Shown in pieces: positions 3,079-49,686 of a stretch of 64,000 bases of DNA. How positions within the stretch are numbered: the stretch's first letter is position 1; each line of letters opens with the position of its first letter. A program made the position numbers and the translations under genes. The notes beneath the pieces are model-generated. The model made no database searches and was not told the DNA's origin. It saw nothing but the letters and a program-made list of their open reading frames with translations. The stretch comes from Dehalococcoidia bacterium (GTDB lineage: Bacteria; Chloroflexota; Dehalococcoidia; Lucifugimonadales; UBA1123). The stretch is taken from contig DAOULF010000259.1 of assembly GCA_034420555.1 (NCBI GenBank), forward strand, positions 13,444-77,443. Reading direction: 5' to 3'.

Positions 3079-4514
<1,436 letters not shown>

Positions 4515-4518
<4 letters not shown>

Positions 4519-4622
4519 CGCCGCGACAGCTTAGTTGTGATGGATATCCAGATTCCGACTTATCCCCTCTCCCTCTGGGTGAGGGTAGATAAGCCGCCAT
4601 TTCAAAGATGTTGAACCACTAG
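4515..4622. repeat. CTAG-bounded miniature repeat, family A-long, copy 1 (contains CCCTCTCCC..GGGTGAGGG hairpin)
   Basis: It is roughly 85 percent identical by eye to 18370..18483. Its left CTAG contains the rpoD TAG stop. Its right CTAG contains the stop (4619-4621, minus strand) of the deacetylase gene. Confidence 0.75.
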
Positions 4623-5317: not shown

Positions 5318-5444
5318 GCTATTGCCAGTCTCCTCTGTCCGATTTCATGTCCGGTATGATGTATCCTATATCCTGGATAGAACATACTAACATTGCAGGG
5401 GGGGTTATTTGTACACGACTTCACATAGGGGCAGGCGACAGTAG

Positions 5445-7919
5445 ATGAAGCGCGTTACTTCACCGCAGGAGTTTCTCGGCTTCAGGGTGGGAGACGACAG
5501 GAAACTGGCCGGTTGGGCTGACATGGTCGGCTATTTCGAACGCCTTGAGACGGAGAGCGACAGGCTCGTCGTAACTGAGATAGGTAGATCAACAGAGGAT
5601 CACCCCTTCAACCTATGCGTCATCAGTTCGGCGGATAACATCGAGCGGCTGGATGAGTATAAGGCGATTCAGCAGTCCTTATCCGACCCTGAGCCGCTCG
5701 GTTCACGAGAGGCCGAAGACTCTATTCGCCGCGCCCGGGCCGTTGTCGCCGTAACTTGCAGCATCCACGCGACCGAAGTGGGCGGCAGCCAGATGTCGCT
5801 CGAACTGGCTCACCTGCTTGCCTCCTCTGACGAGGAAAGAGTCCGCTCCATTCTGGAGAACGTGATTCTTCTCCTTGTCCCCACCATGAACCCCGATGGA
5901 CTGATTCGCGTCAAGGACTGGTATGACGCTTCGCTCGGAACTCACTTCGAGGGATCTATTCCGCCCTACTTGTATCACAAGTACACCGGGCACGATAACA
6001 ACCGCGACTGGTTCATGTTCACCCAGAAGGAGACCAGGCTGGTCGTGGAGCACATCCACAACGCCTGGCATCCGCACATTACCTACGACATCCATCAGAC
6101 TCGCGCCGACGGAATGAGGATGATTCTCCCTCCCCTGCTCGATCCCATCGGACCGAACGTGGATCCGGTCATACAGAGCGAGATGGCGGCGCTCGGAGCA
6201 CATATGGCAGCCCAACTAGTCTCCGAGGGCAAGGCCGGAGTCGCCATGAACATGGTCTATGACTCATACAGCCCCAGCCGCTCGTATCCTCACTACCACG
6301 GGGGCCTGAGAATACTTTCAGAGGCGGCCAGCGCAAAGATAGCCACCCCCATTGACATTCCCGCATCCGCCCTGCGCGAGGACAGAGGCGAAACGCCGAA
6401 AACCAAGTCCTGGAAGCACCCCCTTCCATGGAAAGGCGGCGTCTGGAAACTCCGCGACATCGTTGATTACAACCTCTCCGCTGCCATGGCCTGCCTCGAT
6501 CATGCCGCTCACAACCGGGGCTGGTGGGTCGGAAACAGCTATGATGTCCTCAAGAGAGCGTCAGCCAGCCAGTCCAATCCATACGCATACGTGATACCGA
6601 AGGCCCAGCACGACCCCAGCGCCGCCGACGAACTTCTGGAACTCATGGAGTTTGCCGAAGTCCGCATCCACCGCGCAGAGGAGTCTTTCAACCATGAAGG
6701 CTTCGAAGTCGAGGCGGGAGATAACCTGATCTTTACCCAACAGCCCTTCGGGTCTTTCGCGCAGACAATGCTTGAAACCCAATCGTACCCGGACATCCGC
6801 GAATATCCGGCCGGTCCGCCCAAGCAGCCTTATGATGCGACATCCCACAGCCTGCCGCTTTCGATGGGCGTGGAATGTTACGAGTTGAAGACACCCATAA
6901 GTGCCCGAACGAGTCCGCTAGGAAAGCCTGCTTCTGTAAACAGGCGTCAAGCGCGGCCCGTGATTGCCGAAGCGCCCGCCTACGCGCTGGAGGCGACATC
7001 CAACGCCTCGGTGTCAATAGTCAACCGGCTCTTGTTCAGTGGGCATCCCGTGCTGCGGGCATACTCCCCTACGCACTCTGGAAGTGAAGAGCTGGCCTCC
7101 GGAACCTGGTTGCTGCCCGCTTCCGACGCCTCTCGCGAAGTCCTCTCTTCGACGAACTTGAGGGTCGGCGTTCGACCGGTCGAGACCCGACCGGAAACAG
7201 GGATCAGACTACTGCGACCGCCAAGAATCGGCGTGTATGCGAGCTATGTTCCGAGTATTGAGGAAGGATGGACCCGGTATGTGTTCGACAGCTACGGCTT
7301 CGAGTACACGTCGCTCGTGGATAGCGACATAAAAGAACTCGCTCTGGAAAGCCGTTTCGACTGCATAATCATTCCACACCAGAGGGTCAGACAGCTGCGC
7401 CGCGGATTCAGCAGCGCCCACTACGCGCCACGCTTTTCCGGCGGGTTGGGAGACAGGGGCATCGCGGCGCTGCGAAGGTTCGCCGAGCGTGGGGGAACGA
7501 TCATCGGCTGGGACGATTCAAGCCGGCTGCTCTCTCATCATCTGAAACTGCCCGTCAGCAACCCGCTCGCCAGACTGCAAAGTTCGGACTTCTTCGCTCC
7601 CGGCAGCCTGCTGAGGATAGACGTTGATAACACTCATCCCATCGGGTTCGGAATGCCGGCTAACGCCGCAGCGCTGTACATGAACGGCCCGGCCTACCGG
7701 GTGGAAAAGGGCGATACGATAGCGCGCTTCTCGGAAGAGGAGACGTTGCTGAGCGGACTGCTCATCGGCCAGGAACATATAGCGGGCCTCTCAGCGCTGG
7801 TGTCGGTGCCGGTTGGACTCGGTAAGGTTATCCTGTTCGGGTTCAGACCCCACTTCAGAGCGCAGGCGAGAGGCGCTTATAAGCTCCTGTTCAACTCGGT
7901 GTACGATTCGGTCAAGTAA
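5445..7919 (+). CDS. M14 family zinc carboxypeptidase-like protein with large C-terminal extension
   Basis: HATEVGGSQMSLELAHLL (HxxE zinc site), NPDG and HDNNRDW are typical of peptidase M14. The C-terminal part resembles a GATase1-like domain. Confidence 0.75.
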   Translation: MKRVTSPQEFLGFRVGDDRKLAGWADMVGYFERLETESDRLVVTEIGRSTEDHPFNLCVISSADNIERLDEYKAIQQSLSDPEPLGSREAEDSIRRARAVVAVTCSIHATEVGGSQMSLELAHLLASSDEERVRSILENVILLLVPTMNPDGLIRVKDWYDASLGTHFEGSIPPYLYHKYTGHDNNRDWFMFTQKETRLVVEHIHNAWHPHITYDIHQTRADGMRMILPPLLDPIGPNVDPVIQSEMAALGAHMAAQLVSEGKAGVAMNMVYDSYSPSRSYPHYHGGLRILSEAASAKIATPIDIPASALREDRGETPKTKSWKHPLPWKGGVWKLRDIVDYNLSAAMACLDHAAHNRGWWVGNSYDVLKRASASQSNPYAYVIPKAQHDPSAADELLELMEFAEVRIHRAEESFNHEGFEVEAGDNLIFTQQPFGSFAQTMLETQSYPDIREYPAGPPKQPYDATSHSLPLSMGVECYELKTPISARTSPLGKPASVNRRQARPVIAEAPAYALEATSNASVSIVNRLLFSGHPVLRAYSPTHSGSEELASGTWLLPASDASREVLSSTNLRVGVRPVETRPETGIRLLRPPRIGVYASYVPSIEEGWTRYVFDSYGFEYTSLVDSDIKELALESRFDCIIIPHQRVRQLRRGFSSAHYAPRFSGGLGDRGIAALRRFAERGGTIIGWDDSSRLLSHHLKLPVSNPLARLQSSDFFAPGSLLRIDVDNTHPIGFGMPANAAALYMNGPAYRVEKGDTIARFSEEETLLSGLLIGQEHIAGLSALVSVPVGLGKVILFGFRPHFRAQARGAYKLLFNSVYDSVK

Positions 7920-7955
7920 AGCAGAGACCCTCACGGGCATCTAATCTCTGCTTTC
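7919..7955. terminator. stem-loop between convergent M14 and MFS genes
   Basis: AAAGCAGAG (7919-7927) pairs with CTCTGCTTT (7947-7955) across a 19-nt loop. It overlaps the last codons of the MFS gene. Confidence 0.3.
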
Positions 7956-9017
7956 CTCGGGCGCCTTGACCGACCTGAACATTGCGTACAGGGCCCCGTT
8001 GTAAACCAGCTTGATGAGACTGCCCACTATTATCGGAATGCCGAGCGTGGTCGCTTGCGCTACCACCCCCGCCAGCGCGGGACTGACCGCCTGTGCCATC
8101 GTCCTTCCCAGGTTGGTTACGCTTGCAGTCGCGGTCCGAGCTTCCGTCGGGACAATCGCCATGGAGTAGGACTGCCGCGTAGGAATATCCATGTCGTTTA
8201 TCAGCTCCCTTATCAGGAAGAACAGGACTGCCAGCAGCCAGTTTCCGGTAAGCGCCATGAGAATCATCACCGAGTTGGCGAGCCCCTGCGATGCGGCCAT
8301 CGTCGTTATCAGCCCGATGCGGCGGGCTATCGGAACGGCCAGCATTATGGACACGGCGTTGAGAATCTGTCCGGCGAAGAATATAGCCGCTATCGTCTCC
8401 AACGACATATTGAATCGGTTGGCGAAGAAGAACGACATGAAGCTCTGGACCATGAAACCGCCGCCGAGCGAGTCCAGGCTGAAGAGCGCGGCCAGTTGAA
8501 TCATGATAGTCCGCGCGCTGCGTGGCATATCGGGAGGGGGTTCGGATTCGGGAGACGTAGCGGGCAGCGACTCCGCGCTAGGCGTCAGTCTCCAGTATAT
8601 CGCTACGCCGGCGAAGGCGACGACGGAGTACACGAGAAACATTACCTTGTACGAAGCCACCTCTTCCATGCCAAGCCATGCCTGAAGCACGGCTGGCACG
8701 GCTATCATCAGCGAGCCAAGCGCCTTCGTCAGTCTGCCCACCAGGTTGTACCAGCTAAACAGCATCGTGCGCTGCGATGAAGACCCGGACTGGGCCAGTA
8801 TCGCCATGTCCAGCGACAGGAAGGCGGTTCTGTCGCCTCCGGTGGACGTGGTCATTGCCATGAGCGAGACTGCTACCAGAAGCGCAGCCTCCTCGGTCAG
8901 GGGAAAGAGAATGCCGCCCAGACCCATTAGCAAGGCCATGGCCACGAGCATCCGCCGTCTCCCAATCGTGTCCCCTCTCCAGCTTGCGACGATGTTGGAC
9001 AGGGTTCCTCCGGCCAT
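7941..9017 (-). CDS. MFS transporter (N-terminus probably extends to about 9170)
   Basis: It has many TM segments and the MFS motif A DTIGRRRM just after the annotated ATG. The in-frame upstream sequence encodes TM1/TM2 (KVVVIASAIRSLDYGFISVFLGVYL..) but contains no ATG, GTG or TTG. Confidence 0.7.
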   Translation of the reverse strand: MAGGTLSNIVASWRGDTIGRRRMLVAMALLMGLGGILFPLTEEAALLVAVSLMAMTTSTGGDRTAFLSLDMAILAQSGSSSQRTMLFSWYNLVGRLTKALGSLMIAVPAVLQAWLGMEEVASYKVMFLVYSVVAFAGVAIYWRLTPSAESLPATSPESEPPPDMPRSARTIMIQLAALFSLDSLGGGFMVQSFMSFFFANRFNMSLETIAAIFFAGQILNAVSIMLAVPIARRIGLITTMAASQGLANSVMILMALTGNWLLAVLFFLIRELINDMDIPTRQSYSMAIVPTEARTATASVTNLGRTMAQAVSPALAGVVAQATTLGIPIIVGSLIKLVYNGALYAMFRSVKAPEESRD

Positions 9018-9302
9018 GACCGCGCTGAGGACGATCCCTAGCTGGAGAGGCGTGAATTCGAGCAGGTCGAGATAGACGCCGAGAAAGACGCTGATGAAGC
9101 CGTAGTCCAGGGAGCGGATCGCGGACGCTATGACAACTACCTTCCCGTTTCGGTCAACAGTTGGGACCAGGGAGTTGCGAATCGTGTTGAGTGAATTCCG
9201 AATTTGAGTGCGTCCCTTGCGACAAGACTATCCTGGGTCGCGACCCAAGCGGCCATAAGCGCCGGCGACTAAGATATAGATTGCGCCGGTAACGACCTGC
9301 GC

Positions 9303-11987
9303 CTACCCTGCCAAGCGGTCGAGTATATCCGTGAGACGCGCTATTCTCTCCTGGGCGCTCGTCAGACGGTCGCGTTCCCGGTCAACTACCTCTTCGGGAG
9401 CGCGGCTGACGAAGTTCTCGTTGGACAGGTTGCGCGTGATGCGCTGCTCGTACTTGGTGAGTTCTCCAAGCTCCGACCTGATCCGGCGGGTTTCCTCGTC
9501 AAGGTCAACCAGACCGCCGAGCGAGACTGCAAGCGTACCCGACGCCAGGGCTTGAACAGCCATGTCTGATGATCCGGCTGCCTCGTTCTGAGCATTCGTT
9601 ACACTGAGGTCAATCATGGCCTGCGATCCGATGAAGTCCAGCGACTCCCGGAACACGACTGAATGCACGCCGGAGCCGGAGATCTCGGCCTCCAGCCGCT
9701 CGTTGTTCTGGATTCTGAATTCCGCTCGCAGGTTGCGGGCGGCGCGAACTAGCTCGATGATGGACTCGACCTCAGCCTCCGCCTCGGCATTGTACTGGGA
9801 GGCGTTGCTCTCAGGATACGGCGCTACGATCAGCGCTTCGGGACGGTCCGTGGCCTCGGGAAGGACATCCACCAGCCGCGTCCAGATCTCCTCCGTGACG
9901 AACGGCATGAAGGGATGGAGCATCCTCAGCATCTTTTCGAGAACGTGGGCCAGAACAGGCAAGGGAGAAGGCGTATCCTCCGTTCGTAGCCGCACCTTGC
10001 TCATCTCGATATACCAGTCGCAGAACTCGTTCCACAGGAAATCGTGTATGGCTCGCTGCGCCTCTCCGAACTGGTAGTCCCGCATACTCGCTTCCACCTG
10101 CTCGGCAACCCGGTTCAGGCGGCTGACTATCCAGCGGTCTTCACGATGTTCCACGTCATCCAGGTCGTGCCAGCCGTGCAGGTCGGAACTTGAGGCTCTC
10201 TCGAGATTGCTGATTACGAAGCGCGCGGCGTTCCAGACTTTATTGGCGAAGTTGCGGCTCGCCTCCAGTTTCTGCTCGTTCATTCTCATGTCGTTGCCGG
10301 CCGACGTGCCGGTCGTGAGCGCGAAGCGCACCGCGTCCGCCCCGTACTGGCGCACGAGTTCGAGCGGATCAACGACGTTGCCCTTCGTCTTGCTCATCTT
10401 CACGCCTTCAGGGTCTCGCACCAGGCCGTGCAGATAGACCGTGTGGAAGGGTATCTCGCCCATGTTCTCCATGCCGAAGAAGATCATCCTGGCAACCCAG
10501 AAGAACAGGATGTCGTGTCCCGTCTCCATGACCGACGTCGGGTAGAAGTAGTCCAGGTCCTCGGTATCGTCCGGCCAGCCGAGCGTGGAGTGAGTCCACA
10601 GGCCGGAGCTGAACCACGTGTCCAGAACGTCCGGGTCGCGCTCAAGTTCAGAGCTTCCGCACCTCGGACAATTGGACGGGTCTTCGAGTTCCACCATCTG
10701 CTCGCCGCAGTCGCAGTACCAGACCGGGATCCGATGTCCCCACCAGAGCTGTCGGCTTATAGGCCAGTCCCGGATGTTATCCATCCAGTTGAAATACACC
10801 CTGGCGAATCGCTCCGGCACCACCTTGATGCGACCATCTGCCACGGCGTCCCGTGCGGGCTTGGCGAGCGGAGCCATCTTCACGTACCACTGGTCACTGA
10901 CTATCGGCTCCACGATCTCGTCGCAGCGGTCGCAGTGCCCGACGGCATGGTGAAAGTCTTCGATCTTTTCCAGAACGCCGTCCTCTTCCAGTTGCCGGAC
11001 TACGTTGTCCCGGGAATCGGCGACGCTCTGCCCCTGGTATGCGCCCGCGTTTTCGTTCAACGAACCGTCCAGGTTCAGGATATTCACCGTATCCAGCGCG
11101 TGACGCTGCCCTATATCGAAGTCAACTGGGTCGTGGCCGGGAGTCACCTTGAGCGCGCCTGTGCCGAACTCGATCTCGACCGACTCGTCGCCGATTATGG
11201 GCAGGTGGCGGCCAACGATGGGAAGAATCGCGTTCTTGCCGATCAGGCCGGAGTACCGCCCGTCTTCAGGGTTCACCGCGACTGCCGTATCGCCGAGCAT
11301 CGTTTCAGGGCGTGTGGTGGCGATGACGACATGACCTGATCCATCTTCCAGTCCATACCTGATGTGGTACAGGTGGGCGCTTTCGTCCTGGTACTTGACT
11401 TCGAGGTCCGAGAGGGCTGTGCGGCAGCGCGGGCACCAGTTGGTGATTCGGTTGCCCTTGTATATGAGGCCCTTCTTGTACAGGTTGACGAACGTCGTTC
11501 GGACCGCCTTGGCCGGGCCCTCGTCCAGCGTGAAAGCGCGGCGAGTCCAGTCGCAGGACGCGCCCAGCCGCTCTGTCTGACGGTAGATCCGGTCGCCGTA
11601 GTCGTCCACCCAGGACCAGACGCGCTCGATGAACTTGTCTCGGCCCAGGTCGTGCCTGCTCAGGCCGTCGGAGGCAATCTGCCGCTCCACAACGACCTGC
11701 GTGGCGATGCCCGCGTGATCCGTTCCCGGAAGATAGAGCGTGGGTTCGCCCAGCATACGATGCCACCTGATCATCAGGTCTTCCAGTGCGATGGTGAGCG
11801 CGTGCCCCATGTGGAGTTCGCCGGTCACGTTCGGAGGCGGCATGATGATAGTGAACGGCTCTTTCGAGCGATCTATCTCGGGCGTGAAGTAGCCGTTGTC
11901 GTTCCAGAACTTGTAAATACGCTCCTCTACGGCCCCTGGCACGTAGGCGCGAGGCATATCTCCCTGTGGAACCAGCTTGTTCGCCAT
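9303..11987 (-). CDS. valS: valine--tRNA ligase
   Basis: It has the class I HIGH motif (PPPNVTGELHMGHAL), the KMSKS motif (KMSKTKGN) and a C-terminal coiled coil. Its 894 aa length is typical of ValRS. Confidence 0.97.
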   Translation of the reverse strand: MANKLVPQGDMPRAYVPGAVEERIYKFWNDNGYFTPEIDRSKEPFTIIMPPPNVTGELHMGHALTIALEDLMIRWHRMLGEPTLYLPGTDHAGIATQVVVERQIASDGLSRHDLGRDKFIERVWSWVDDYGDRIYRQTERLGASCDWTRRAFTLDEGPAKAVRTTFVNLYKKGLIYKGNRITNWCPRCRTALSDLEVKYQDESAHLYHIRYGLEDGSGHVVIATTRPETMLGDTAVAVNPEDGRYSGLIGKNAILPIVGRHLPIIGDESVEIEFGTGALKVTPGHDPVDFDIGQRHALDTVNILNLDGSLNENAGAYQGQSVADSRDNVVRQLEEDGVLEKIEDFHHAVGHCDRCDEIVEPIVSDQWYVKMAPLAKPARDAVADGRIKVVPERFARVYFNWMDNIRDWPISRQLWWGHRIPVWYCDCGEQMVELEDPSNCPRCGSSELERDPDVLDTWFSSGLWTHSTLGWPDDTEDLDYFYPTSVMETGHDILFFWVARMIFFGMENMGEIPFHTVYLHGLVRDPEGVKMSKTKGNVVDPLELVRQYGADAVRFALTTGTSAGNDMRMNEQKLEASRNFANKVWNAARFVISNLERASSSDLHGWHDLDDVEHREDRWIVSRLNRVAEQVEASMRDYQFGEAQRAIHDFLWNEFCDWYIEMSKVRLRTEDTPSPLPVLAHVLEKMLRMLHPFMPFVTEEIWTRLVDVLPEATDRPEALIVAPYPESNASQYNAEAEAEVESIIELVRAARNLRAEFRIQNNERLEAEISGSGVHSVVFRESLDFIGSQAMIDLSVTNAQNEAAGSSDMAVQALASGTLAVSLGGLVDLDEETRRIRSELGELTKYEQRITRNLSNENFVSRAPEEVVDRERDRLTSAQERIARLTDILDRLAG

Positions 11988-39558: not shown

Positions 39559-41589
39559 CTACGCTATCCGCTTCTTTCTCGCCCGCATATAGTCCACCAT
39601 CACATATTGCCCAAGCTGGTTCGGCGATGTGTAGAACGCCCTGCCCTTGTTGACCTTCGTCACCTGGTCAATGAAGTCCATCAGGTAGTAGTTCGCCTCC
39701 AGCATGAAGGTATTGATCGTTATCCCGTCCTGCGTGCAGCGCTTGACCTCTTTCAGAGTCTCGTCAATCGTCTGGTAGCTGGGCGGGTAGCTGAAGTAGG
39801 CGTGGCCGTTCTCAAGGTGGGAAGTCGGCTCGCCGTCGGTGACCATGATGATGTGCTTGTTCGCCACCTTCTGCCGGGAGAGCAGCTTGCGGGCCAGCAT
39901 AAGTCCGTGCTGCATATTCGTGCCTGAGTTCCAGTAGTTCCAGGTAATCTCCGGCAACTCTTCTTCCTTGAACTCCATAGCGTAGTCGGAGAAGCCGACT
40001 AAGTAGAAGTAGTCGCGCGGGAACTGGGAGTGAATGAGCCAGTACAGGGCCATCGCCACCTTCTTTGCCGGGCCCCAGTAGCCGAACATCCCCATTGACT
40101 TGCTCTGGTCCAGGAGCAGCACCGTGGCGGTCTGAGTCAGATGCTCGGTATGATGCACTTCCAAGTCTTCGGGCGTCAGTCTCAGAGGCACGTTCGGTCC
40201 GTTCCGCAGTACCGAGTTGAACAGAGTGCGGTGCATGTCAATGTCGAACGGATCTCCAAACTGGTACTGCCGCGTCTCGCCCGTGTACTCGCCGCCATCG
40301 CCGCGGGTGAATACCTCGTGCCTGCCCATGCGCTCCTTCTTCATCTCCGAAAAGACTTCGCGAAGCGCGCTCTGCGCCAGCTTTCGCATCCCTCTCGCGG
40401 TCAGTTCGAGCCTATCCCCCTTACGGCGCAGATACCCGGCCTCTTCGAGCTGCTGGATTAGCTGCTGAAGCTGTTCGAGTTCACGGCGCGCGTCCTCTCC
40501 CATCAGCTCCTCGACCTTATCGGGATCAACGTTCTCAACTCCGCCCTGTCGCGTCACGGACTCGAGTTGATCGTCCAGCCGGTCCATGTCCTGGAGTTGC
40601 TCCATGAGCTGCATTGCCTGGTCCAGGGTCACGGACTCGTCGCCCATGAATGGGTACTCTGAAGCCATGTCGTCGAACGGGAACATTTCGTACATCGTCG
40701 AAGCAAGTTCGGCCATGTCCTGCATCATCTCCGACGGCATCGAAGACTGGAGCATATCCTCAAGTTCGTCGCGCATCTGCGACGACATAGAATCCATCAA
40801 TGACTGCATGGACGCCATCTGCTGCTGAAGCTGTTCTATAAGCTCGTCCAGGCTCGCGGGACGGTCCGGGTCGAAGTAGTGACCGTACTGTTCCATGAAG
40901 CCCTCGAAGTCCGGGTCATCGCCCATCGCCCTGTCCCTGAGCATCTGGTTCAGGGCCTGTATCATCTCCTGTATGCCGCGCATATCTTCCGGCGACATAT
41001 TCTGAATCGCGTCCTTCATCCCCTGGAAGAAGTTCTGCATCATCTGTTGACGCAGCATCTCCATCAGTTCCTGGAACTTCTCCTGCGCTTCGGGATCCAT
41101 GAAGTCGTAGTCCGACAGGGAACGGACCTGGCCTGCGGCGCTCTCAGGCAGAAGGTCCAACTTCTCCGTGTTCTGCTGGGCGCGCTGTTCCAGTACGTCC
41201 ATCGCGTTGCCGAGAATATCGTTGAGATCGGAATCCTCACCCGCGCTCTCAAGCTGCTGTCTCGCGTCATCCAGGCGTCGCTCGATGCCGCTTCTCTCCG
41301 TGGAGATTATGTCCTCAAGACGCTCGGCAATGTCGTCCATGGCCGACTCGAGATTATAGCGTTCCATCTGCTGCTGCTGGAGGCGGCTGAGACGCTCCCG
41401 GAGTTCACGAATCCCCGTAATCTTCTGACCCTGGTCGCCGCTCATCCCCTGCCGCATGAGATTGCGCATCGCCCGGTTCACGTCGCCGTGATTCATGATG
41501 TCTTCGGACAGCGCTTCCAAAACATCGTCCTCGTCGAGATCGAACGGGTTCTGGGTTCCGTCCCAATAGGAGTAGCGATAGCTGACCAT
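39559..41589 (-). CDS. VWA domain-containing protein with long Met/Gln/acidic-rich helical N-terminal region
   Basis: The C-terminal VWA domain has a MIDAS-like VLLLDQSKSMG and HIIMVTDGEPT. The N-terminus is MVSYRYSYWDGTQNPFDLDEDD. Confidence 0.75.
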   Translation of the reverse strand: MVSYRYSYWDGTQNPFDLDEDDVLEALSEDIMNHGDVNRAMRNLMRQGMSGDQGQKITGIRELRERLSRLQQQQMERYNLESAMDDIAERLEDIISTERSGIERRLDDARQQLESAGEDSDLNDILGNAMDVLEQRAQQNTEKLDLLPESAAGQVRSLSDYDFMDPEAQEKFQELMEMLRQQMMQNFFQGMKDAIQNMSPEDMRGIQEMIQALNQMLRDRAMGDDPDFEGFMEQYGHYFDPDRPASLDELIEQLQQQMASMQSLMDSMSSQMRDELEDMLQSSMPSEMMQDMAELASTMYEMFPFDDMASEYPFMGDESVTLDQAMQLMEQLQDMDRLDDQLESVTRQGGVENVDPDKVEELMGEDARRELEQLQQLIQQLEEAGYLRRKGDRLELTARGMRKLAQSALREVFSEMKKERMGRHEVFTRGDGGEYTGETRQYQFGDPFDIDMHRTLFNSVLRNGPNVPLRLTPEDLEVHHTEHLTQTATVLLLDQSKSMGMFGYWGPAKKVAMALYWLIHSQFPRDYFYLVGFSDYAMEFKEEELPEITWNYWNSGTNMQHGLMLARKLLSRQKVANKHIIMVTDGEPTSHLENGHAYFSYPPSYQTIDETLKEVKRCTQDGITINTFMLEANYYLMDFIDQVTKVNKGRAFYTSPNQLGQYVMVDYMRARKKRIA

Positions 41590-41782: not shown

Positions 41783-44620
41783 TTACTGGCTCGGAATAGC
41801 TATATGCTGGTCGGCCGGCACGTTGGTCAGTACGCTGGTCTCGCCATTGACCCACTCGACGCGAATTTCGTCCACGGTCCCGGCGCTTCCCAGGCCGAAG
41901 TGAGCGATCCTTCCCGGTCCCTGGGTAACGAAGTTGGTCGAAGCGTGCAGTTCGCGCATCTGCGTCAGTCCGTTTGCGGTCACATAGACCCTCGACCCAA
42001 TGCCGTGACTGTGTAGCGGCGGAGACCCGTCCAGTGTAACCTTCAGCCAGTGATTCCCAACCTGCGTATCGTTTCTGAGCAGGGTTGGCTGGGCCGGACG
42101 TCGGACTGGCTCCGCGCCGTCCATCGTGTATTCGTGGTTGTTGGTGATGAATATGTCCAGGTCGCCATCATTATCGAAATCGAACAGGATCACGCCCCTG
42201 CCCTGCCCCCTATCGGCGGCGCCCGCCTGCTCGCCCACCTCGTGGAAGCCCAGATAGCCGCCATTCTCGAATAGGCGCGCGGTCTGGTTGTTGAATTCCT
42301 CGGGGCTGCCCTCTTCAGCCCGTTGGACCCAGCCGTTTACATGGTACAGGTCAAGGTCACCGTCATTGTCAAGGTCGCCGAAACTGGCCGCCCAGCCCCA
42401 GCCTCCGTCACGGATGCCCGCTTCGGCGCTCAGGTCCGCGAATCTCATTTCTGACTCGTTCCGGTAGAATCGGTTCCCTGTGCCTCCAGACACTCCCTTG
42501 TCAGGGTTGTTCTGTCCGAATATGCTGGACACGAACCAGTCCAGGTCACCGTCGTTGTCATAGTCCCCGATTGCCGACCCCATCCCGTTCTCGTCCGTGA
42601 ATGTCGGCGACGCGCTTCTCTCCACCTGGAACTTACCGTCGCCCACGTTCCTGTATATCCGCGACAACCCATAGTCCGACACGACCGCCAGGTCCGTCAG
42701 GCCGTCACCGTCCAGGTCCGCGAACCTCGGCGCGAAGACCCACAGATCAATCCCTGGAGCCGCTCGGAACTCATACGGTTCCAGCCTTCCCTGCCCATCA
42801 TTGCCGTAAACGAACAGGGGCGACAGGTCATCTCTCCCGATCAAAGGATTCTCATTTGCAATCGCAGGGATATCGTTATCGGCTTTCGTCGCGGCGTCAT
42901 AATTCTTCGCCGTTTCCGGATTCCACTCACCCAGGGCCAGTTCGAGGTCTCCATCATTATCCACGTCTCCCCAACTCGGACTGGTGGCGAACATCTCTGG
43001 CTGCGTAAGCGCCGTATTATTCACGCCGAACCGTCCCGACCCATCATTGACAAGCAAATAGTGAGGCGCTTGCTGCGCCGTGACCACTATGTCTATGTCG
43101 CCATCGTTATCATAGTCGGCGGCAGCGGCGGCTACTCCATGCTTTGTCGGAAGGTCCGCTCCTCTCAGCGCGGCCTCCTCCGAGAACGTGCCATCTCCCC
43201 TGTTCATGTACAGTACACTGGGCGCTTCGCCGCCGCGCAGGACAAATAGGTCTATCCAACCATCGCCGTCGAAGTCTTCCGCTGCCGCGCCCCCTACCAT
43301 GTCTTTAGGTTCTATCTTGCCCAACAGGGGTTCCGGCGCCGTGTGAGTATGAGTAACGCCCGACGAGAGGGTAACGTCCGTGAACCGCATCGAGCTTACC
43401 CACTCTGTCCCGTTCCCCGGCGCCACGACTGAAACTGGTGGCGTGAAGCGGGACGATGTTCCATAGTCGGCGCGCAGACCAAAGTCCGGCCCGTTCCCGA
43501 GTGATACGAACAGCAGCGCCGCCAAGCCCCCGACAACTCCCAACAGCCACGTACTTCCGCCAAACGCTGCAATCGCTCTCCTCGGCATGACCTTGGACAG
43601 TCCCCAGAAGGTTATCGGCCCTGCCGCGGCTGCGGTGAACAGTAAGGCCGCCGCCGGCGCGGTTCCCATGCCCGCCATCAACAGAACGGCCACCAGGGGT
43701 ATCTCAAACAGCAGCGGGACATTGATGGCGATTCCGATTGTCGCCGCTATCACCACGCCAAGAATGTCGTCACCCAGCCAGGTGGTCACAGTCTCAGGGC
43801 TGAGCCATTGGATCGCGAATCCGCTTGCGAATCCCGCCAGTATCATCACGGGGGCCAGGCGTATCACGTGCCCGGCTGTGATCTTCGCCCACTCTCTGAA
43901 GCTCTCCCCTATCGTCTCCCGCCACCCGGTCATGTCCGGCGCGGTCGGACTGTAAGGCAGGTCTAAGAGACCGCCGTCATCCTGTTTCAGAATCTTCGCG
44001 ACCAGAGGGCCTATCAACAGAACGCCCACAAGACTCACCGCGATGCGAGTCCCCCCAATCAACGGCGCGAAAACCATCGCCGCCATGACCAGAGAGGGCA
44101 CGTTGAATGTGGAGGAGCTTTGCGTAATGGCCAAAGTGGTCTCTATACCCGAGCCGCGTCTGCGGAAAGCCGAGGCCACCGGCACGATGCACGCCGAGCA
44201 TAGATTCACAGCCGGTCCTATGAGCAGACCCTTCAGAGCCCCCTTGATACCCGTGCCCGACAAACTCCACCCGGCGGATTTAGGGAAGATGAACGCCTCG
44301 GTCGCTCCCGCTACGAGGAATGCGAAGATCATGCCCACCGTAACGAGTTGAAGATAGGTGAGTGAGAATTCCCACCATCGAGACATGAAAGACTTCTCGG
44401 GCTGCTCTTCGATGCAGAAGCCCTGGAAACACTCCGCGACTGGTGACGTCGCCACAGCGAGATCGGCCTGCACCGTGTCCAGCTTGGGAACCCGGTTGAA
44501 CGCCAGGAACAGCGCCAGCATGATGCCAATAAGAAGCAGCCCTATGACGCGGCGCTTCTTCAGCCCGCTGTCATAGAGCGAGTTCGGGAAGTTGCTGGTT
44601 CCGGCGCGGATTCTAAGCAT
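41783..44620 (-). CDS. fusion protein: N-terminal UPF0718/ArsP-like permease + C-terminal FG-GAP (VCBS) propeller and ASPIC/UnbV domain (CRTAC1 family)
   Basis: The N-terminal ~380 aa are multi-TM and contain NLCSACIVPVASAF. Seven DxDxDG-type repeats follow (DFDGDGWIDLFV ... DFDNDGDLDIFI). The UnbV-like tail reads NHWLKVTLDG..GIGSRVYVTANG..HFGLG..VDEIRVEW. Confidence 0.75.
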   Translation of the reverse strand: MLRIRAGTSNFPNSLYDSGLKKRRVIGLLLIGIMLALFLAFNRVPKLDTVQADLAVATSPVAECFQGFCIEEQPEKSFMSRWWEFSLTYLQLVTVGMIFAFLVAGATEAFIFPKSAGWSLSGTGIKGALKGLLIGPAVNLCSACIVPVASAFRRRGSGIETTLAITQSSSTFNVPSLVMAAMVFAPLIGGTRIAVSLVGVLLIGPLVAKILKQDDGGLLDLPYSPTAPDMTGWRETIGESFREWAKITAGHVIRLAPVMILAGFASGFAIQWLSPETVTTWLGDDILGVVIAATIGIAINVPLLFEIPLVAVLLMAGMGTAPAAALLFTAAAAGPITFWGLSKVMPRRAIAAFGGSTWLLGVVGGLAALLFVSLGNGPDFGLRADYGTSSRFTPPVSVVAPGNGTEWVSSMRFTDVTLSSGVTHTHTAPEPLLGKIEPKDMVGGAAAEDFDGDGWIDLFVLRGGEAPSVLYMNRGDGTFSEEAALRGADLPTKHGVAAAAADYDNDGDIDIVVTAQQAPHYLLVNDGSGRFGVNNTALTQPEMFATSPSWGDVDNDGDLELALGEWNPETAKNYDAATKADNDIPAIANENPLIGRDDLSPLFVYGNDGQGRLEPYEFRAAPGIDLWVFAPRFADLDGDGLTDLAVVSDYGLSRIYRNVGDGKFQVERSASPTFTDENGMGSAIGDYDNDGDLDWFVSSIFGQNNPDKGVSGGTGNRFYRNESEMRFADLSAEAGIRDGGWGWAASFGDLDNDGDLDLYHVNGWVQRAEEGSPEEFNNQTARLFENGGYLGFHEVGEQAGAADRGQGRGVILFDFDNDGDLDIFITNNHEYTMDGAEPVRRPAQPTLLRNDTQVGNHWLKVTLDGSPPLHSHGIGSRVYVTANGLTQMRELHASTNFVTQGPGRIAHFGLGSAGTVDEIRVEWVNGETSVLTNVPADQHIAIPSQ

Positions 44621-44650: not shown

Positions 44651-44687
44651 AAACGGGGTGTGGAGACATAATCGCCACACCCCGTTT
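44651..44687 (-). terminator. stem-loop terminator after the ABC substrate-binding protein gene
   Basis: AAACGGGGTGTGG ... CCACACCCCGTTT forms a 13-bp stem with an 11-nt loop. Confidence 0.55.
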
Positions 44688-44725: not shown

Positions 44726-46723
44726 CTATCGGAATCCGGTCCTGGACTCTCTCAGGTCGCGGTCTAGCCAGATGTAGGCCCACTTCGTGGAGTAGTCCAC
44801 GAAGGCCAGGATTCTCTCGCCATTGTGGTTCTGGACCCATGGCTGCCAGTAGTCGCCACCGAAGCCGGCGGGAATCTGAATAAGCGGAGCCAGTTCTAGG
44901 AAGCCGGTGTTCGCGGCCTTGATCCGGGCAATCTGCTCGTTAGACTCGGTCGCGGCCAGTACGTCCTCCCACATGGCGTGCCATTCGGGGTCGTTCAGGT
45001 TGGACCTGTTCCACTGGTGTCCGGCTCTGAAGTCGTTCAGCGCGTTCGGCCTTGCGACCAGTGCGTTGAACATGAAGTCATACTGCTTCTCGAACAGACG
45101 GCTCTGAATGACAGGGCTGTCCACGAGGTCCAGTGTGACCTTCACGCCGATGTCGTCCCAGAAGTCCACCGCTATCTGCGCTGACTCAAGCTCCAGCTCG
45201 ATGGTATTCCTGATCATCAGATCAATCTCGAAGCGTGTTCCGTCGGAGTCCAACGGGTATCCCGCCGCGTCCAGAAGCTCGCCCGCCTTCTCAGGATTGT
45301 ACTCGAAGTATTCCTGCACCGACTCCGGCTGGTCCTCCAGCGGTACGTAGTGGAGCGGCCACTCAGGAGACGACGGGAAGGCGAACAGGACCGCATCGCC
45401 CTCGTACAGGTTGTCCGCGAAGACCTGCCTGTCTATCGCCATGTTCATCGCGCGACGCACCTGGAGGTCGTCGAACGGAGGCTTGTTCATCGGCATCCAG
45501 AATATGTGCGCGCCCTGGAGGGGCTTGACCTTTCCAAGGTCAGGGTTCGACTCTTCGATGCTGGCCCAGTCGGAGGTCCGCACGTCTCTGAGTTTGTCAA
45601 TCTTGCCGGTCCTCAGGGCAGCCAGCCTGGCGGCTTCCTGCGGAATGATGATCTCTACTATCCCATCTATGAAGGGCAGCGCGTATTCACTGCCTTCGTA
45701 GTTATAAGTGGCCCACCAGTCCGGGTTCTTCTCGAACTCGGTCTTGCTGCCAGCCACGTATCCGCCCTCGACCGTCATCCACGGCCCGGTGCCGGACTGG
45801 TTCCAGGGATCGTCGGTGCCAAGCTCGATGGTCTCAGGAGGAGCGGCTATGAGGTAGGGACCCCAAGCGAACTCGTAACCCCAGAAAGAGACCGGCTTGT
45901 TGGTGTGGTAGGTAACCGTGTCGCTGACGCCATCACCGTCCGTATCGTCGCCGGTGACCTTATCCAGGAAGTCATGCCTGGGCCAGCGGCAGTCCTTGAT
46001 GCGTTCCATTTCGGCGACCAGTTCGTCAACTTCTACCGGCCTGCCGAATGTGGGATGCTTGTCCTGCCATCTGACTCCCGGCCTCACGTGGAAGCTGTAT
46101 GTCAGAGGGTCCGGCACTTCCCAACTGTCGGCCAGGGCTCCGGTGGCGAGCTTGTCCGTTCCGAATCCGAGTACCGGAAGGTACGTGGTCTCGCCGCTGC
46201 CGGATGGACCCTTATCATAGTCGCCCATCAGGAAGTTCTCGACCGAATAGGTGAGCATATGCTGGTTCTTGAACTCGCACATGTCCCACTTGGAGCCTGG
46301 ATCGCTCGCTGCCGCAATTCTCAGCTGCCCTCCGTAGGACGGGCCTGTCCTTATCTCGACAGCCTTCACGTCTTCGGGCCTCAGCTGCGTCATCGCGACC
46401 GGCGCGGCCTCGACCGCGGCCTCAGCCGCCTTCTTCGCGGCCTCTTCGACGGACTTCGCTATCTGCGCCTCTTGGGCCTTCAGGGCTTCCTGAACGGCCT
46501 TGGCCACTTCTTCAGAAGTAGCGCCCTGCTGCATCGCAGGGGCCGGGGCCGGTTGCGCCGCCTGCGCCTGCTGGACTGCTTGCTGGGCTGCTTGCGCCGC
46601 TATCGCGGCCACGTCCGGTGTCGGCGCTGCCGGAGCCGCCGGCGTATCACTTGCACACGCCATCAATGCCACTAACGCTATCGCAAGCGTCATGATGACT
46701 GCTACTGATTTCAGTTTACTCAA
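44726..46723 (-). CDS. ABC transporter substrate-binding lipoprotein, family 5 (peptide/nickel type)
   Basis: It has the lipobox ALMACAS, a linker of roughly 100 aa rich in Ala/Gln/Glu, and an SBP_bac_5-like body. Confidence 0.8.
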   Translation of the reverse strand: MSKLKSVAVIMTLAIALVALMACASDTPAAPAAPTPDVAAIAAQAAQQAVQQAQAAQPAPAPAMQQGATSEEVAKAVQEALKAQEAQIAKSVEEAAKKAAEAAVEAAPVAMTQLRPEDVKAVEIRTGPSYGGQLRIAAASDPGSKWDMCEFKNQHMLTYSVENFLMGDYDKGPSGSGETTYLPVLGFGTDKLATGALADSWEVPDPLTYSFHVRPGVRWQDKHPTFGRPVEVDELVAEMERIKDCRWPRHDFLDKVTGDDTDGDGVSDTVTYHTNKPVSFWGYEFAWGPYLIAAPPETIELGTDDPWNQSGTGPWMTVEGGYVAGSKTEFEKNPDWWATYNYEGSEYALPFIDGIVEIIIPQEAARLAALRTGKIDKLRDVRTSDWASIEESNPDLGKVKPLQGAHIFWMPMNKPPFDDLQVRRAMNMAIDRQVFADNLYEGDAVLFAFPSSPEWPLHYVPLEDQPESVQEYFEYNPEKAGELLDAAGYPLDSDGTRFEIDLMIRNTIELELESAQIAVDFWDDIGVKVTLDLVDSPVIQSRLFEKQYDFMFNALVARPNALNDFRAGHQWNRSNLNDPEWHAMWEDVLAATESNEQIARIKAANTGFLELAPLIQIPAGFGGDYWQPWVQNHNGERILAFVDYSTKWAYIWLDRDLRESRTGFR

Positions 46724-46854
46724 TTTCGATACCCCATCCTTTCCTATACCTTAAGCAACGTCCCTGAACGCTACCAAATCTGAGCTAGTCAATGATAGTG
46801 AATTTTGCTCTATGTCACAAGATGTCTCCCTAAAAGCCGTCACACCTGTACGTC

Positions 46855-47787
46855 CTAGTACCGACCACCCGCGGCGCCCCTGAGCCTTGGGTCGAGGAGG
46901 TCTCTGAGTGCGTCTCCGAACATATTCGTGCTGTACACTACAACGCTAAGCGCAAGGCCGGGCCACACTGCGAGCAATGGCGCTCTCAGCATATAAGACA
47001 TTGCAGCGCTGCTGAGCATACCGCCCCAACTCGGAGCCGGCGGAGGAACGCCGAGACCGAGGAAGCTGAGACCCGACTCGGCCAGCATCATGCCGGGCAT
47101 TCGAGTGGTGACCAGCACCAGCAGGAATGGCGCGACGTTCGGAAGAACGTGTCTCAAGAGGATCCTGGGAGTCGATACTCCGACAGCCTGCGAAGCCTCT
47201 ATGTAGGCGTTCTGCCTGATTCCTATGACGGCTCCCCTTACCGACCTTGATCCACCCAGCCCGTATTGTAAGCCCAGGATGAATACTATATTCCAAAGGC
47301 TGGGACCAACCAGGGCCACCAGCAATATCAAAAGTATCAAGTCGGGAAACACAAGCCATGCGTCAATGAACCTTTGCACGACAAGATCGAACTTCCCTCC
47401 AAAGTATCCTGAAGGAATACCAATCAGGCACGATACGATGAGCGAAGTGATACTTCCGATTACACCCACCAGCATGGAGATACGCGCGCCGTAGATGATG
47501 CGACTGAACATATCCCGACCTATGCTGTCGGTGCCGAGAAAGTGATCGAACGAGGGCGAGGAGAGACGCTCGAAGCGCGTAGTCGTCCCGTCTTCGTTCC
47601 TGATTTTCTGCTCGTTGAAGCCGTAAGGCGCGATGAAGTTCGCGAATACGCCGACAAAGAAGAATACCAGCACGATGACCGCGGAGACCGTGCCTAGCGG
47701 TTTCGTCCTGACCAGCCGCGTGGCGAAGTCGGCAAATTGATTGCGTCTCTCTCGGACTGGCGCGGCGCCTATAGTTGCTTGTGCCAT
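46855..47787 (-). CDS. ABC transporter permease (DppC/OppC type)
   Basis: It has an EAA-type loop (YIEASQAVGVSTPRILLRHVLPN) and six TM segments. Confidence 0.9.
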   Translation of the reverse strand: MAQATIGAAPVRERRNQFADFATRLVRTKPLGTVSAVIVLVFFFVGVFANFIAPYGFNEQKIRNEDGTTTRFERLSSPSFDHFLGTDSIGRDMFSRIIYGARISMLVGVIGSITSLIVSCLIGIPSGYFGGKFDLVVQRFIDAWLVFPDLILLILLVALVGPSLWNIVFILGLQYGLGGSRSVRGAVIGIRQNAYIEASQAVGVSTPRILLRHVLPNVAPFLLVLVTTRMPGMMLAESGLSFLGLGVPPPAPSWGGMLSSAAMSYMLRAPLLAVWPGLALSVVVYSTNMFGDALRDLLDPRLRGAAGGRY

Positions 47788-47802
47788 TCTTCCCGCGTAC
47801 CT

Positions 47803-48768
47803 CTAACTGTAACGAATCCTGGGGTCTAGCCAGGCGTAGCTTAAGTCGGTTATCAGAATGATGAGCAGCACGAACATGCTGAACACGAGCGTTACCCCTA
47901 TTATCACCGGGAAGTCTCTGAGGAAAGCCGCCTCTACGGCCAGCCGACCCATTCCCGGAAGACCGAAGATCTGCTCGATTATTACGGAGCCGCCTATTAC
48001 GACTGGCACACCGAGCGCAAGAACCGTAATCACCGGTATCAACGCGTTCTTGACCGCGTGCCTGAAGATGACGACTTTTTCTGTCAGCCCCTTCGAATAG
48101 GCGGTCCTGATGTAGTCCTCTCTCACGACCTCCAGCATCATCGTTCGCATCAATCTCATGTTGACGCCGTTGATGGCCATGCCCATGATGACTGCCGGGA
48201 GCAGGATCATCTTCAGATTCTCCCACGGATCTTCCCAGATATGGACGTAGATGATGGGCGGCGACCAGTTCCACCATAGCGATGGGAAGACAATCACCAT
48301 GATTCCTACCCAGAATGAAGGAAGGCTGATGAACAGAATGGCAAGACTGCGGAATACGTAGTCCACCCATGAGTCCTGTCGCACAGCCGAAAGTATCGCC
48401 ACAGGAAATGAGATCAAGATGGCGATCAATATCGCCAGAATTCCAAGCTCGAAGGTGACGGGCAACCTCTGTATTATCTGGTCCTTGACGTCAAAACCCA
48501 TGATCACCGCGTCGCCCAGGTCCTGGTGAAGTATCAGGTCTCTCCACCATCTGAAATACTGGATGTAGATGGGAACGTCAATTCCGAGTTGCTTTTCGAG
48601 TTCGGCGCGCAGCAGTCCCCGGTCTTCTTTGCCGGAGAGGTCCATCTGGCCGATCAGGACATCAATCGCGTCGCCCGGGATTACTCGCAGCGCGGCGGTG
48701 GTCAGAAGTGTGACGATTAGAAGGGTCGGTATAGTAAGAAGCAGCCTTCTTATTATGTAAGTGGTCAT
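47803..48768 (-). CDS. ABC transporter permease (DppB/OppB type)
   Basis: It has MTTYIIRRLLLTIPTLLIV and DYIRTAYSKGLTEKVVIFRHAVKNALIP. Confidence 0.9.
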   Translation of the reverse strand: MTTYIIRRLLLTIPTLLIVTLLTTAALRVIPGDAIDVLIGQMDLSGKEDRGLLRAELEKQLGIDVPIYIQYFRWWRDLILHQDLGDAVIMGFDVKDQIIQRLPVTFELGILAILIAILISFPVAILSAVRQDSWVDYVFRSLAILFISLPSFWVGIMVIVFPSLWWNWSPPIIYVHIWEDPWENLKMILLPAVIMGMAINGVNMRLMRTMMLEVVREDYIRTAYSKGLTEKVVIFRHAVKNALIPVITVLALGVPVVIGGSVIIEQIFGLPGMGRLAVEAAFLRDFPVIIGVTLVFSMFVLLIILITDLSYAWLDPRIRYS

Positions 48769-48783
48769 CTGACTATATCACCC

Positions 48784-49686
48784 TCATTTATCTACTCTGA
48801 CGCCCTTTTCTTCCAGAGCTGGAATCACGACGTTCACGGAATTGTCATCCAGACTCAGACCCCAAAGCCTGACCGTATCGCCTTCACCCAGACCTGACTC
48901 CAGCAGGGGTGAGATGTCCGTTACCTCATTTCGGGTGAGTTCTAGGTGGTTCAGACTGGAAAGCGAAGCCAGAGGCGAGATGTCGCTGATCTGATTCTTA
49001 GTCAGATTGAGAGTCTCCAGATTGGTCAGGCTGGCAAGGGGAGAGATATCCGTTATCTGGTTCTCCCAGAGATCCAGTTCAGTCAGGTTGGTGAGTCCGC
49101 TCAGAGGGGTCAAATCGCTTACGAGGTTGTCCTTCAATCGGAGATAAGTCAGGTTGGTGAGTCCGGCCACCGGTGTAACGTCGCTTATGGCGTTTTGGGC
49201 CATATCCAGACTTGTCAGTTTGGTCAGCCCAGCCACCGGAGATATATCGCTTATGGTGTTCTGGGACATATCGAACTTTACGAGATTAGTCATGTGTTCT
49301 GTCCCGGATATGTCCGCTATATACCACCGCTGATTCAGTTGAAATTCGGTGAATTCCGTCACATCCGCGATCATTATAGGCCCTTCGTCCTGTTTGAGAG
49401 TCGCCCTGACAGCATTCTCTACCTCCGGATCCGGGAAGATGACCTCTCCCTCAGCCGCGACTCGCTGCGGCCTTTCTTCCGTGACTGTCTTCTGGCCCGA
49501 CCTCTGCGCTCGCCGCGCGTCTTCCGCCACTTCTACCGCCAATGCCTGTTCCGCCACTTGCTGGGCCGACTCCTCCGCTTCTCCGCCTCCACCGCCACCG
49601 CAAGCTATAACGACAGCCGTAGTGGCGAAAACTACAACTGTGAGAAACCACAGACGAACCAACATTACCCTCCATAAGCCCTGCAT
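48784..49686 (-). CDS. leucine-rich repeat (internalin-like, 22-aa repeats) lipoprotein
   Basis: It has the lipobox VVIACGG and at least six LTNLTxLxLxxNxISDISPLAx repeats. Confidence 0.8.
   Translation of the reverse strand: MQGLWRVMLVRLWFLTVVVFATTAVVIACGGGGGGEAEESAQQVAEQALAVEVAEDARRAQRSGQKTVTEERPQRVAAEGEVIFPDPEVENAVRATLKQDEGPIMIADVTEFTEFQLNQRWYIADISGTEHMTNLVKFDMSQNTISDISPVAGLTKLTSLDMAQNAISDVTPVAGLTNLTYLRLKDNLVSDLTPLSGLTNLTELDLWENQITDISPLASLTNLETLNLTKNQISDISPLASLSSLNHLELTRNEVTDISPLLESGLGEGDTVRLWGLSLDDNSVNVVIPALEEKGVRVDK

Follow-up and report, generated by a model that had tools for sequence, protein, structure and literature searches.

A widespread fusion of an ArsP-family permease to a CRTAC1-type beta-propeller as a candidate two-module surface transport system

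Why should a membrane carrier be covalently joined to a large propeller domain of a kind that normally stands alone? The question is raised by a gene in a stretch of 64,000 nucleotides of contig DAOULF010000259.1 (hereafter the window), from a marine Chloroflexota bacterium of SAR202 type. At 41783..44620 on the minus strand, which carries all window features described here, a single open reading frame (ORF) of 945 codons plus stop encodes an ArsP-like permease followed by a seven-bladed FG-GAP beta-propeller and a UnbV_ASPIC domain, as judged from the ORF list, the translation, Pfam and full-length homologues. A first-pass annotation made from the letters alone had called this fusion unusual and had proposed that the covalent link reflects functional coupling, with a ligand-binding propeller that would feed or gate the permease. 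We find that the fusion is common, and we consider it probable that carrier and propeller form a coupled two-module surface transport system, in which the propeller is a dedicated partner on the extracytoplasmic side.

By all comparative evidence the gene is real and intact, and the fusion is not an assembly chimera. The frame has no internal stops (ORF listing and translation), GC content is without a step at the junction (0.57–0.62 throughout), and the same uninterrupted full-length ORF occurs in more than 100 independent assemblies, some of them single-contig chromosomes of 3–4.5 Mb. Within the limits of comparative data, this rules out a chimera as well as a missed stop.

The first ~380 residues had been read as a multi-transmembrane (TM) permease with the cysteine pair NLCSACIVPV, and profile searches agree. 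Pfam ArsP_1 (PF03773) matches residues 96–366 (43523..44335) with 63.2 bits, above the gathering cut-off of 32.3, and spans most of the model (positions 19–290 of 294), which places this half in the ArsP_1/UPF0718 family. The ArsP family (TC 2.A.119) is built of a 4+4 helix repeat, and a variant with one extra N-terminal transmembrane segment has been described (PMC7176098). AlphaFold2 (AF2), run on a 55-sequence alignment, gave a whole-protein model with mean pLDDT 80.7 and a predicted TM-score (pTM) of 0.61; a separate model of the permease alone has pLDDT 81.5 and pTM 0.81. An additional N-terminal helix, TM0 (residues 19–43; 44492..44566), is preceded by KKRR, and the charge of this segment predicts a cytoplasmic N-terminus. 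It is followed by a first set of helices (78–111, 124–138 broken from 142–154, 159–171 broken from 174–183, and 186–212), a disordered loop (214–228), and a second set (233–272, 286–299 broken from 306–315, 320–332 broken from 335–342, and 347–374). The model thus has 1+4+4 helical segments, and the helices that are broken in one half have broken counterparts in the other; a half-versus-half BLAST comparison was not significant (E 1.9).

The helix breaks fall on two invariant motifs, N139-L-C141-S-A-C144 and N300-V-P-L-L-F-E306-I-P308. The cysteine pair C141-x-x-C144, within NLCSACIVPV (residues 139–148; 44177..44206), lies at the break of helices 124–138 and 142–154, and the second-repeat motif NVPLLFEIP (residues 300–308; 43697..43723) places E306 at the break of helices 286–299 and 306–315. 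NVPLLFEIP is invariant in both of our alignments of SAR202-subfamily homologues (A1 and A2). In A2, C141, S142, A143, C144 and P147 are also invariant, as are P302, E306 and P308, within a total of ~70 invariant permease columns over 59 sequences that include polar and Cys residues. Counterparts in a distant clade described below, C126, C129 (for C141 and C144) and D297 (for E306), are invariant in the alignment of that clade (A3). Because the CxxC and acidic motifs are invariant in SAR202 and in the distant clade, the carrier site is kept wherever the propeller is attached. The general family motifs, G-x-P-x-x-x-C-x-x-C-x-x-P in repeat 1 and P-x-x-x-[ED]-[IV]-P in repeat 2, are present here, in the short stand-alone relatives P0199, P0237 and P0211, and in the distant fusions. 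The loop C64-F-Q-G-F-C69 (44414..44431), extracytoplasmic and a beta-hairpin in the model according to DSSP, is invariant in A1 and A2 and absent from the distant clade.

Two named relatives were scored with NCBIfam models: SaoE (NF040736) reached 36.4 bits against a cut-off of 325, and the SO_0444 Cu/Zn efflux family (NF033936) 35.2 bits against 300. We conclude from profile and motifs that the permease half belongs to ArsP_1/UPF0718, and is neither ArsP proper nor any named equivalog. A fold search of the permease model against the PDB gave no significant match (best E 0.08, TM-score at most 0.34). The weak matches, suggestive only, are broken-helix or hairpin carriers (VcINDY, NaCT, NaS1, ASBT/NTCP, GltPh, CitS and YeeE). 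On this predicted model, and as far as the PDB library searched shows, the ArsP fold seems to be without a solved structural relative.

On which side of the membrane does the propeller lie? Averaged over 55 homologues, net charge is +3.9 for the N-terminus, −2.4 for loop 43–87 and −2.4 for linker 376–412, and loops 113–127 and 343–356 are positively charged. Nine spans with a cytoplasmic N-terminus put the C-terminal domain outside. An alternative topology in which the motif-bearing segments form re-entrant hairpins fits the charges of loops 151–162 and 273–285 better, and both models place the propeller outside. Because the loop charge bias, the lipoprotein nature of stand-alone relatives and the signal peptides of split propellers all agree, these predictions establish that the propeller and the UnbV sandwich are outside the cell.

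Between the last TM helix and the propeller runs a disordered, weakly conserved and acidic linker (residues 376–412; 43385..43495), with pLDDT below 50 at residues 376–405 and a consensus that is mostly 'x'. The propeller itself (residues 413–856; 42053..43384) was recognised by Pfam, AF2, Foldseek and phmmer. Its six FG-GAP_3 stretches total 149.4 bits and FG-GAP scores 54.1 bits, both above their gathering cut-offs, and the model has 7 × 4 strands. The seven Ca-binding-type repeats and the UnbV/ASPIC tail of the first-pass annotation were all recovered in the translation, by Pfam and in the model: the DxDxDG loops are DFDGDGWIDLFV (449–460), DYDNDGDIDIVV (502–513), DVDNDGDLELAL (552–563), DLDGDGLTDLAV (635–646), DYDNDGDLDWFV (686–697), DLDNDGDLDLYHV (749–761) and DFDNDGDLDIFI (814–825). 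The tail is an eight-stranded beta-sandwich in the AF2 model (residues 857–945; 41786..42052), supported by phmmer and by a UnbV_ASPIC match (PF07593; residues 873–939, 55.4 bits against a cut-off of 23.4). Against the crystal structure of murine CRTAC1 (9etn_A), the C-terminal half gave a Foldseek E-value of 1.8e-21 and a target TM-score of 0.70 over 585 aligned columns; phmmer gave an E-value of 1.4e-15. Identity to CRTAC1 is 18%. With a DxDxDG seven-blade propeller, a C-terminal UnbV_ASPIC domain and a fold match to CRTAC1, this half is a CRTAC1/ASPIC-UnbV member by profile and fold, minus the usual stand-alone secreted architecture: it follows nine predicted TM helices and has no signal peptide of its own. 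That proteins of this type normally stand alone, as the first-pass annotation had stated, is illustrated by three stand-alone CRTAC1-like genes elsewhere in the source genome and by the lipoprotein relatives P0103 and P0120 (58–60% identical), in each of which a lipobox Cys is combined with a long tether of Pro, Thr and Ala.

How rare is this architecture? Among 5.8 billion proteins, more than 100 clusters at 39–93% identity align along the whole query and share its four Pfam families. Relatives are encoded in 389 stretches of the GTDB genomes (one genome per species). Each of the best 80 is full length, and 79 of them carry the label Dehalococcoidia, Chloroflexota or SAR202. Within Chloroflexota the distribution is patchy (the subfamily is present in 5 of 301 evenly sampled genomes), and where present the gene is often multiplied, with 4–5 copies per genome in some; the source genome has one fusion copy, to which its three stand-alone CRTAC1-like genes are unrelated. 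A phmmer query with the permease alone against 1.84 billion representatives returned 767 relatives, and nine long ones at 25–30% permease identity all have ArsP_1, FG-GAP and UnbV_ASPIC. A search seeded with the distant relative P0256 yielded 423 proteins, nearly all of the top 120 being of the same architecture and 1000–1320 aa long. This distant clade bears names from the alphaproteobacterial side (Breoghania, three strains; Nitratireductor sp. XY-223; Tateyamaria; Hyphomicrobiales; Afifellaceae), with one gammaproteobacterial metagenome-assembled genome (MAG), Bdellovibrionales, and the Bacteroidota Reichenbachiella and Cryomorphaceae.

With more than 100 clusters and hundreds of relatives in several phyla, the fusion can no longer be called unusual. 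The first-pass annotation had itself allowed that it might turn out to be common and already annotated. It is indeed abundant in RefSeq, UniRef and IMG, but its labels there are generic: 'FG-GAP-like repeat-containing protein', 'VCBS repeat-containing protein' or 'uncharacterized membrane protein YraQ (UPF0718 family)'. Our literature searches found no paper describing a permease-propeller fusion. We conclude, on sequence grounds, that it is a widespread, old and unnamed two-module family.

A few copies deserve mention in their own right. The sole Spirochaetia label among the best 80 loci belongs to L088 (OZ242313.1, 5.0 Mb; match 8001–10742), whose fusion forms a long branch inside Chloroflexota clades and has an odd composition; horizontal transfer or a mislabelled MAG is possible. 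In G002 (CBDFIE010000003.1), two of five or six paralogs (L041 and L042) look degraded, one having a permease with an in-frame TGA (open frame of 927 aa) and the other an open frame of ~600 aa, which suggests copy turnover. The fusion frame of L081 was called at 1482 aa, ~500 aa above its relatives, by a crude ORF call; the surplus could be an N-terminal extension, upstream ORF read-through or a start-codon artefact.

The two modules are also found as separate neighbours. A metagenome scan with the distant-clade alignment found 549 relatives, and in 8 of the best 80 contigs (L137–L141, L143, L145 and L148) the system is split into two same-strand genes, an ORF of 372–376 aa with ArsP_1 only and one of 654–671 aa with FG-GAP and UnbV_ASPIC only, separated by 0 or 3 nt (TAGATG, TAAATG). 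All eight split propellers begin with a signal-peptide-like segment (e.g. MPTLLTLPFALAILAVLFPFAAEA). Identities among the eight pairs are 67–91% for the permease and 68–85% for the propeller, and the pairs therefore come from different organisms. In L140 (1111–7383), one permease gene is followed by two tandem propeller genes (662 and 674 aa) and then by a GT4 glycosyltransferase gene; in L143 a GT4 gene lies directly downstream of the split pair.

Divergence of the two halves was compared with the window protein as reference. Close orthologues have diverged equally in both halves, and in most paralog clades the permease is 52–60% and the propeller 30–40% identical. The generalisation that the permease is always the better conserved half was rejected, as paralogs in G003 and JAPOWW have propellers at 61–66% and permeases at 53–61%. 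Two loci stand apart: L044 and L049 (fusion at ~8001–11100 in each) have a permease 76–77% and a propeller 30–31% identical to those of the window, with a sharp drop in identity at residues 360–400 (the last TM helix and the linker, which is long and acidic). The L049 permease is 89–95% identical to three paralogs of the same genome, and the nearest non-sister relatives of its propeller (52–55%) are in deep clades. These comparisons identify the two as products of a module swap, or of gene conversion limited to the permease. As judged from these alignments, the propeller is exchangeable on a nearly unchanged permease. To the picture of the protein itself, our analysis adds the split-gene form, the module swap and the apparent lack of a solved relative of the permease fold.

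What, then, could the two halves do together? In the mechanism that we favour, residues 1–375 would be a working secondary carrier of the ArsP/UPF0718 family, with the extra N-terminal helix and two four-helix repeats, and an intramembrane site would be formed from C141-x-x-C144 and E306, each at its helix break. Nine membrane passes would lead from an inside N-terminus to an outside C-terminus, and a flexible tether of ~35 residues would hold the Ca2+-stabilised seven-blade CRTAC1-type propeller and the UnbV sandwich outside. Beside the carrier mouth, the propeller would bind the transported compound, or the surface molecule for which that compound is destined, serving as a capture module in uptake or as an acceptor or processing module in export.

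A functional link is indicated because the fusion persists at 25–30% permease identity across phyla. It would be more than mere tethering, because the genes also occur split and abutting and because the fusion is found in diderms, where a periplasmic domain needs no anchor. Both halves are under constraint, and their linkage, whether fused or abutting, has lasted over the long term. The functional coupling proposed by the first-pass annotation thus gains real support from cross-phylum conservation and from the split abutting genes; we infer ligand binding by the propeller and its communication with the carrier. For the SAR202 proteins, export with hand-off and uptake with capture seem to us about equally probable, export being favoured by family precedent and uptake by paralog expansion and by importer or catabolic neighbours.

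The importer neighbours begin in the window. Upstream of the fusion, at 44726..49686, Pfam matches reveal a block without an ATPase gene, which encodes a leucine-rich repeat (LRR) protein, two permeases of Opp/Dpp type and an SBP_5 binding protein. This block is kept, in the same order and on the strand of the fusion, in ~19 species whose fusions are 56–90% identical. Comparison of orthologous loci revealed a GC-rich stem-loop followed by GTTT (44652..44686) in the gap that separates the SBP_5 stop codon from the start of the fusion gene; it is kept in 14 of 14 orthologous loci with a stem of 12–14 bp, and 3 of its 14 pairs show compensatory double changes. A consensus terminator scan missed it because its T-run is short. 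It is probably a terminator or 3' stabiliser of the upstream ATP-binding cassette (ABC) transcript. Downstream, at 39559–41589, is a gene for a 676-aa protein with a C-terminal VWA/CoxE-like domain and an N-terminal two thirds of low complexity, acidic and exceedingly rich in Glu, Asp, Met and Gln. This VWA gene is kept only where the fusion is at least 75% identical.

In 26 of the 80 loci the fusion lies immediately next to an SBP_5 gene. These cases fall in several deep clades and differ in orientation, with at least seven state changes on the tree of 80, while SBP_5 genes make up only ~1–2% of genes in these genomes. This adjacency is above chance, yet not general. We counted the presence of SBP_5 importer modules beside the gene in several deep clades in favour of the propeller as transport partner; the carrier site shared by the SAR202 and distant clades and the exchange of modules in L044 and L049 count on the same side. 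An SBP_5 ABC module as obligatory partner was rejected: it is absent in an 18-member clade, and the conserved hairpin separates it from the fusion. Neighbours of other SAR202 paralogs include SBP_bac_1 ABC genes, asparaginase, amidohydrolase, SDR, GFO/IDH/MocA and other propeller genes. In L106 (4097–16458, in a 6.5-Mb MAG), a second stand-alone CRTAC1-like gene (933 aa) precedes the fusion and a lasso-peptide-like cluster (Asn-synthase-like, PqqD, HPr-kinase/ScmC-like, DUF455) follows it.

Several observations weigh against a dedicated partnership of carrier and propeller. The linker is disordered and pTM falls from 0.81 for the permease alone to 0.61 for the whole protein, so that no confident docking is predicted. 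Conserved residues of the propeller, mostly structural FG-GAP and Ca-loop positions in the alignment, revealed no ligand site, and the gene contexts of SAR202 and distant-clade loci yield no single partner or substrate. Members of the 18-member paralog clade lack an ABC neighbour, and its genome, with four fusion paralogs, contains only 4 SBP_5 genes. G263 and G287 encode a stand-alone permease, 55% identical, which keeps all motifs, stops just past the last helix and has no propeller gene in its vicinity, and no permease gene adjoins the lipoprotein propellers P0103 and P0120. Coupling is therefore not obligatory, since either module occurs alone at 55–60% identity. We also know of no beta-propeller that serves as receptor for a secondary carrier.

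The alternative that survives best takes the permease merely as an anchor, which would hold a surface propeller (an adhesin, a glycan binder or an enzyme) on a monoderm membrane in place of the lipid anchor of its sister proteins, the activities of the two halves being unrelated. The long-tethered lipoproteins without an adjacent permease, the flexible and poorly conserved linker, and the stand-alone permease of the same subfamily are all consistent with it. Yet a nine-helix carrier with ~70 invariant positions, a CxxC pair and a buried Glu exceeds what an anchor needs, and in comparisons between paralog clades the propeller has mostly diverged more than the permease. Diderm Proteobacteria and Bacteroidota, whose periplasmic proteins need no anchor, have the fusion too, and the split propeller has its own signal peptide although in all eight organisms its gene directly adjoins that of the permease. 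We therefore hold pure anchoring to be unlikely.

Could the system instead be an exporter of metals or metalloids? An ArsP- or SO_0444-like carrier would then expel a thiophilic species (an organoarsenical, Cu, Zn or another organometallic compound) and the propeller would be an outside acceptor or sink. The only named relatives, SaoE and SO_0444, are efflux families by annotation, and ArsP is a methylarsenite and roxarsone(III) efflux permease, acting on trivalent organoarsenicals (PMC6205960). The invariant intramembrane CxxC with an acidic residue suits soft metals, and the stand-alone permease of G263 is encoded ~2 kb from a CopC-CopD-cytochrome c gene. However, at ~36 bits against cut-offs of 300–325, the NCBIfam scores are about one tenth of what an equivalog would reach. 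There are no ars genes near the fusion in the window or the 80 related SAR202 loci, and no ars, cop, mer or metal-regulator genes beside those 80 loci or ~76 distant-clade loci. Up to five paralogs per genome with divergent propellers would be atypical of a resistance pump, and the propeller has neither a conserved Cys nor a His or Met cluster beyond the structural motifs of its family. Metal efflux is in our view quite improbable. In the G263 region itself (L100, G263:C1:477000–495000, genes 3602–9626), the stand-alone permease lies downstream of the CopC-CopD-cytochrome c fusion gene and of a DUF3105 gene; a copper link for the permease subfamily is possible there.

A third alternative is modification of surface glycans after the manner of OafA or OatA, in which the carrier would move a small donor or precursor and the propeller would apply it to a cell-surface polymer. 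This picture draws on the distant clade, whose gene neighbours include glycosyltransferases, MBOAT, Sel1/TPR and sulfotransferases, the last overlapping the fusion stop codon in Nitratireductor and Reichenbachiella; GT4 genes follow split pairs as well. Fused, split and stand-alone forms mirror those of the AT3-SGNH systems, and the fold neighbours of the propeller in Foldseek include Bap1 and the PL11 lyase YesX. Against it, these associations hold in a minority of loci only: at the +1 position of distant-clade loci, Sel1 was found in 6 of 58, TPR in 4 of 58 and a sulfotransferase in 3 of 58. A sulfotransferase as general partner was rejected, as the 3 of 5 first distant loci fell to ~10% in the larger sample, and neither the surroundings of the 80 SAR202 loci nor the source genome as a whole contain a sulfotransferase gene. 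SAR202 contexts point to uptake or catabolism, and no catalytic residues were identified. We rate glycan modification as a rather slim prospect. It and metal efflux are special cases that overlap with the propeller acting as the carrier's partner. Last, an artefact at the junction (43385–43495), whether a chimeric assembly or a missed stop or frameshift, which the first-pass annotation wished to see excluded around 43450–43550, has a negligible chance of being correct, since the uninterrupted architecture recurs in over 100 protein clusters and all of the 80 best GTDB loci, closed long-read chromosomes included, base composition is smooth across the junction and the junction residues align between homologues.

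How does this protein compare with known systems? It resembles the ArsP family (TC 2.A.119, UPF0718/YraQ/YcgR) in its 271-residue Pfam match, its predicted 4+4 (+1) helices, the Cys motif of repeat 1 and the Pro/acidic motif of repeat 2. In contrast to ordinary ArsP_1 members, to which its permease is only ~25–30% identical, it is not in an ars operon, and it carries a 570-aa extracytoplasmic domain and the subfamily-specific CFQGFC outer loop. With CRTAC1 (9etn) and the bacterial CRTAC1 family it shares the seven FG-GAP blades with DxDxDG loops followed by a UnbV_ASPIC sandwich, whereas its low identity, the missing signal peptide and its position as the C-terminal domain of a polytopic membrane protein set it apart; it also lacks the C-terminal EGF-like part of vertebrate CRTAC1.

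Two further comparisons are analogies from general knowledge. As in OpuA, GlnPQ and the TRAP and TTT transporters, the outside module would be free (in the split form), lipid-anchored (as in P0103 and P0120) or fused, depending on lineage. There is no homology, however: the module is a beta-propeller, not a Venus-flytrap substrate-binding protein, the carrier has the ArsP fold, and no DctP/TctC or DctQM/TctAB Pfam families occur in the fusion protein. The AT3-SGNH proteins OafA and OatA, and the split PatA/PatB, offer a similar parallel, with a membrane domain, a linker and an outside domain in fused, split or lone forms and with surface-polysaccharide clusters as context, as in part of the distant clade. 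There is no relationship in sequence or fold, and the analogy would apply mainly to the proteobacterial and Bacteroidota clade, as SAR202 contexts do not support it.

Taken further, the partnership of carrier and propeller might define a new class of partner-dependent secondary transporters, in which an obligatory Ca2+-loaded propeller would dock as receptor or acceptor on a carrier with hairpins and possibly an elevator mechanism. Specificity would be set by the propeller, which paralogs could exchange (as in L044 and L049), and fused, split and lipid-anchored versions would span at least four phyla. We put this forward tentatively, as a possibility that we think will more probably fail than hold.

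Both halves come from large and poorly understood families: only a small number of ArsP/UPF0718 permeases have been characterised, and the CRTAC1-like propellers that abound in marine bacteria have no known function. That the two stay linked in Chloroflexota, Proteobacteria, Bdellovibrionales and Bacteroidota offers a handle on both, as the propeller probably touches what the carrier moves, and cultured carriers of the gene (Breoghania and Nitratireductor) make the hypothesis open to ordinary genetics. An ancestral role for vertebrate CRTAC1 might also be hinted at. SAR202 is abundant in the deep ocean and noted as a degrader of recalcitrant organic matter, and the presence of up to five paralogs per SAR202 genome suggests a role for these proteins in how its cells interact with dissolved compounds.

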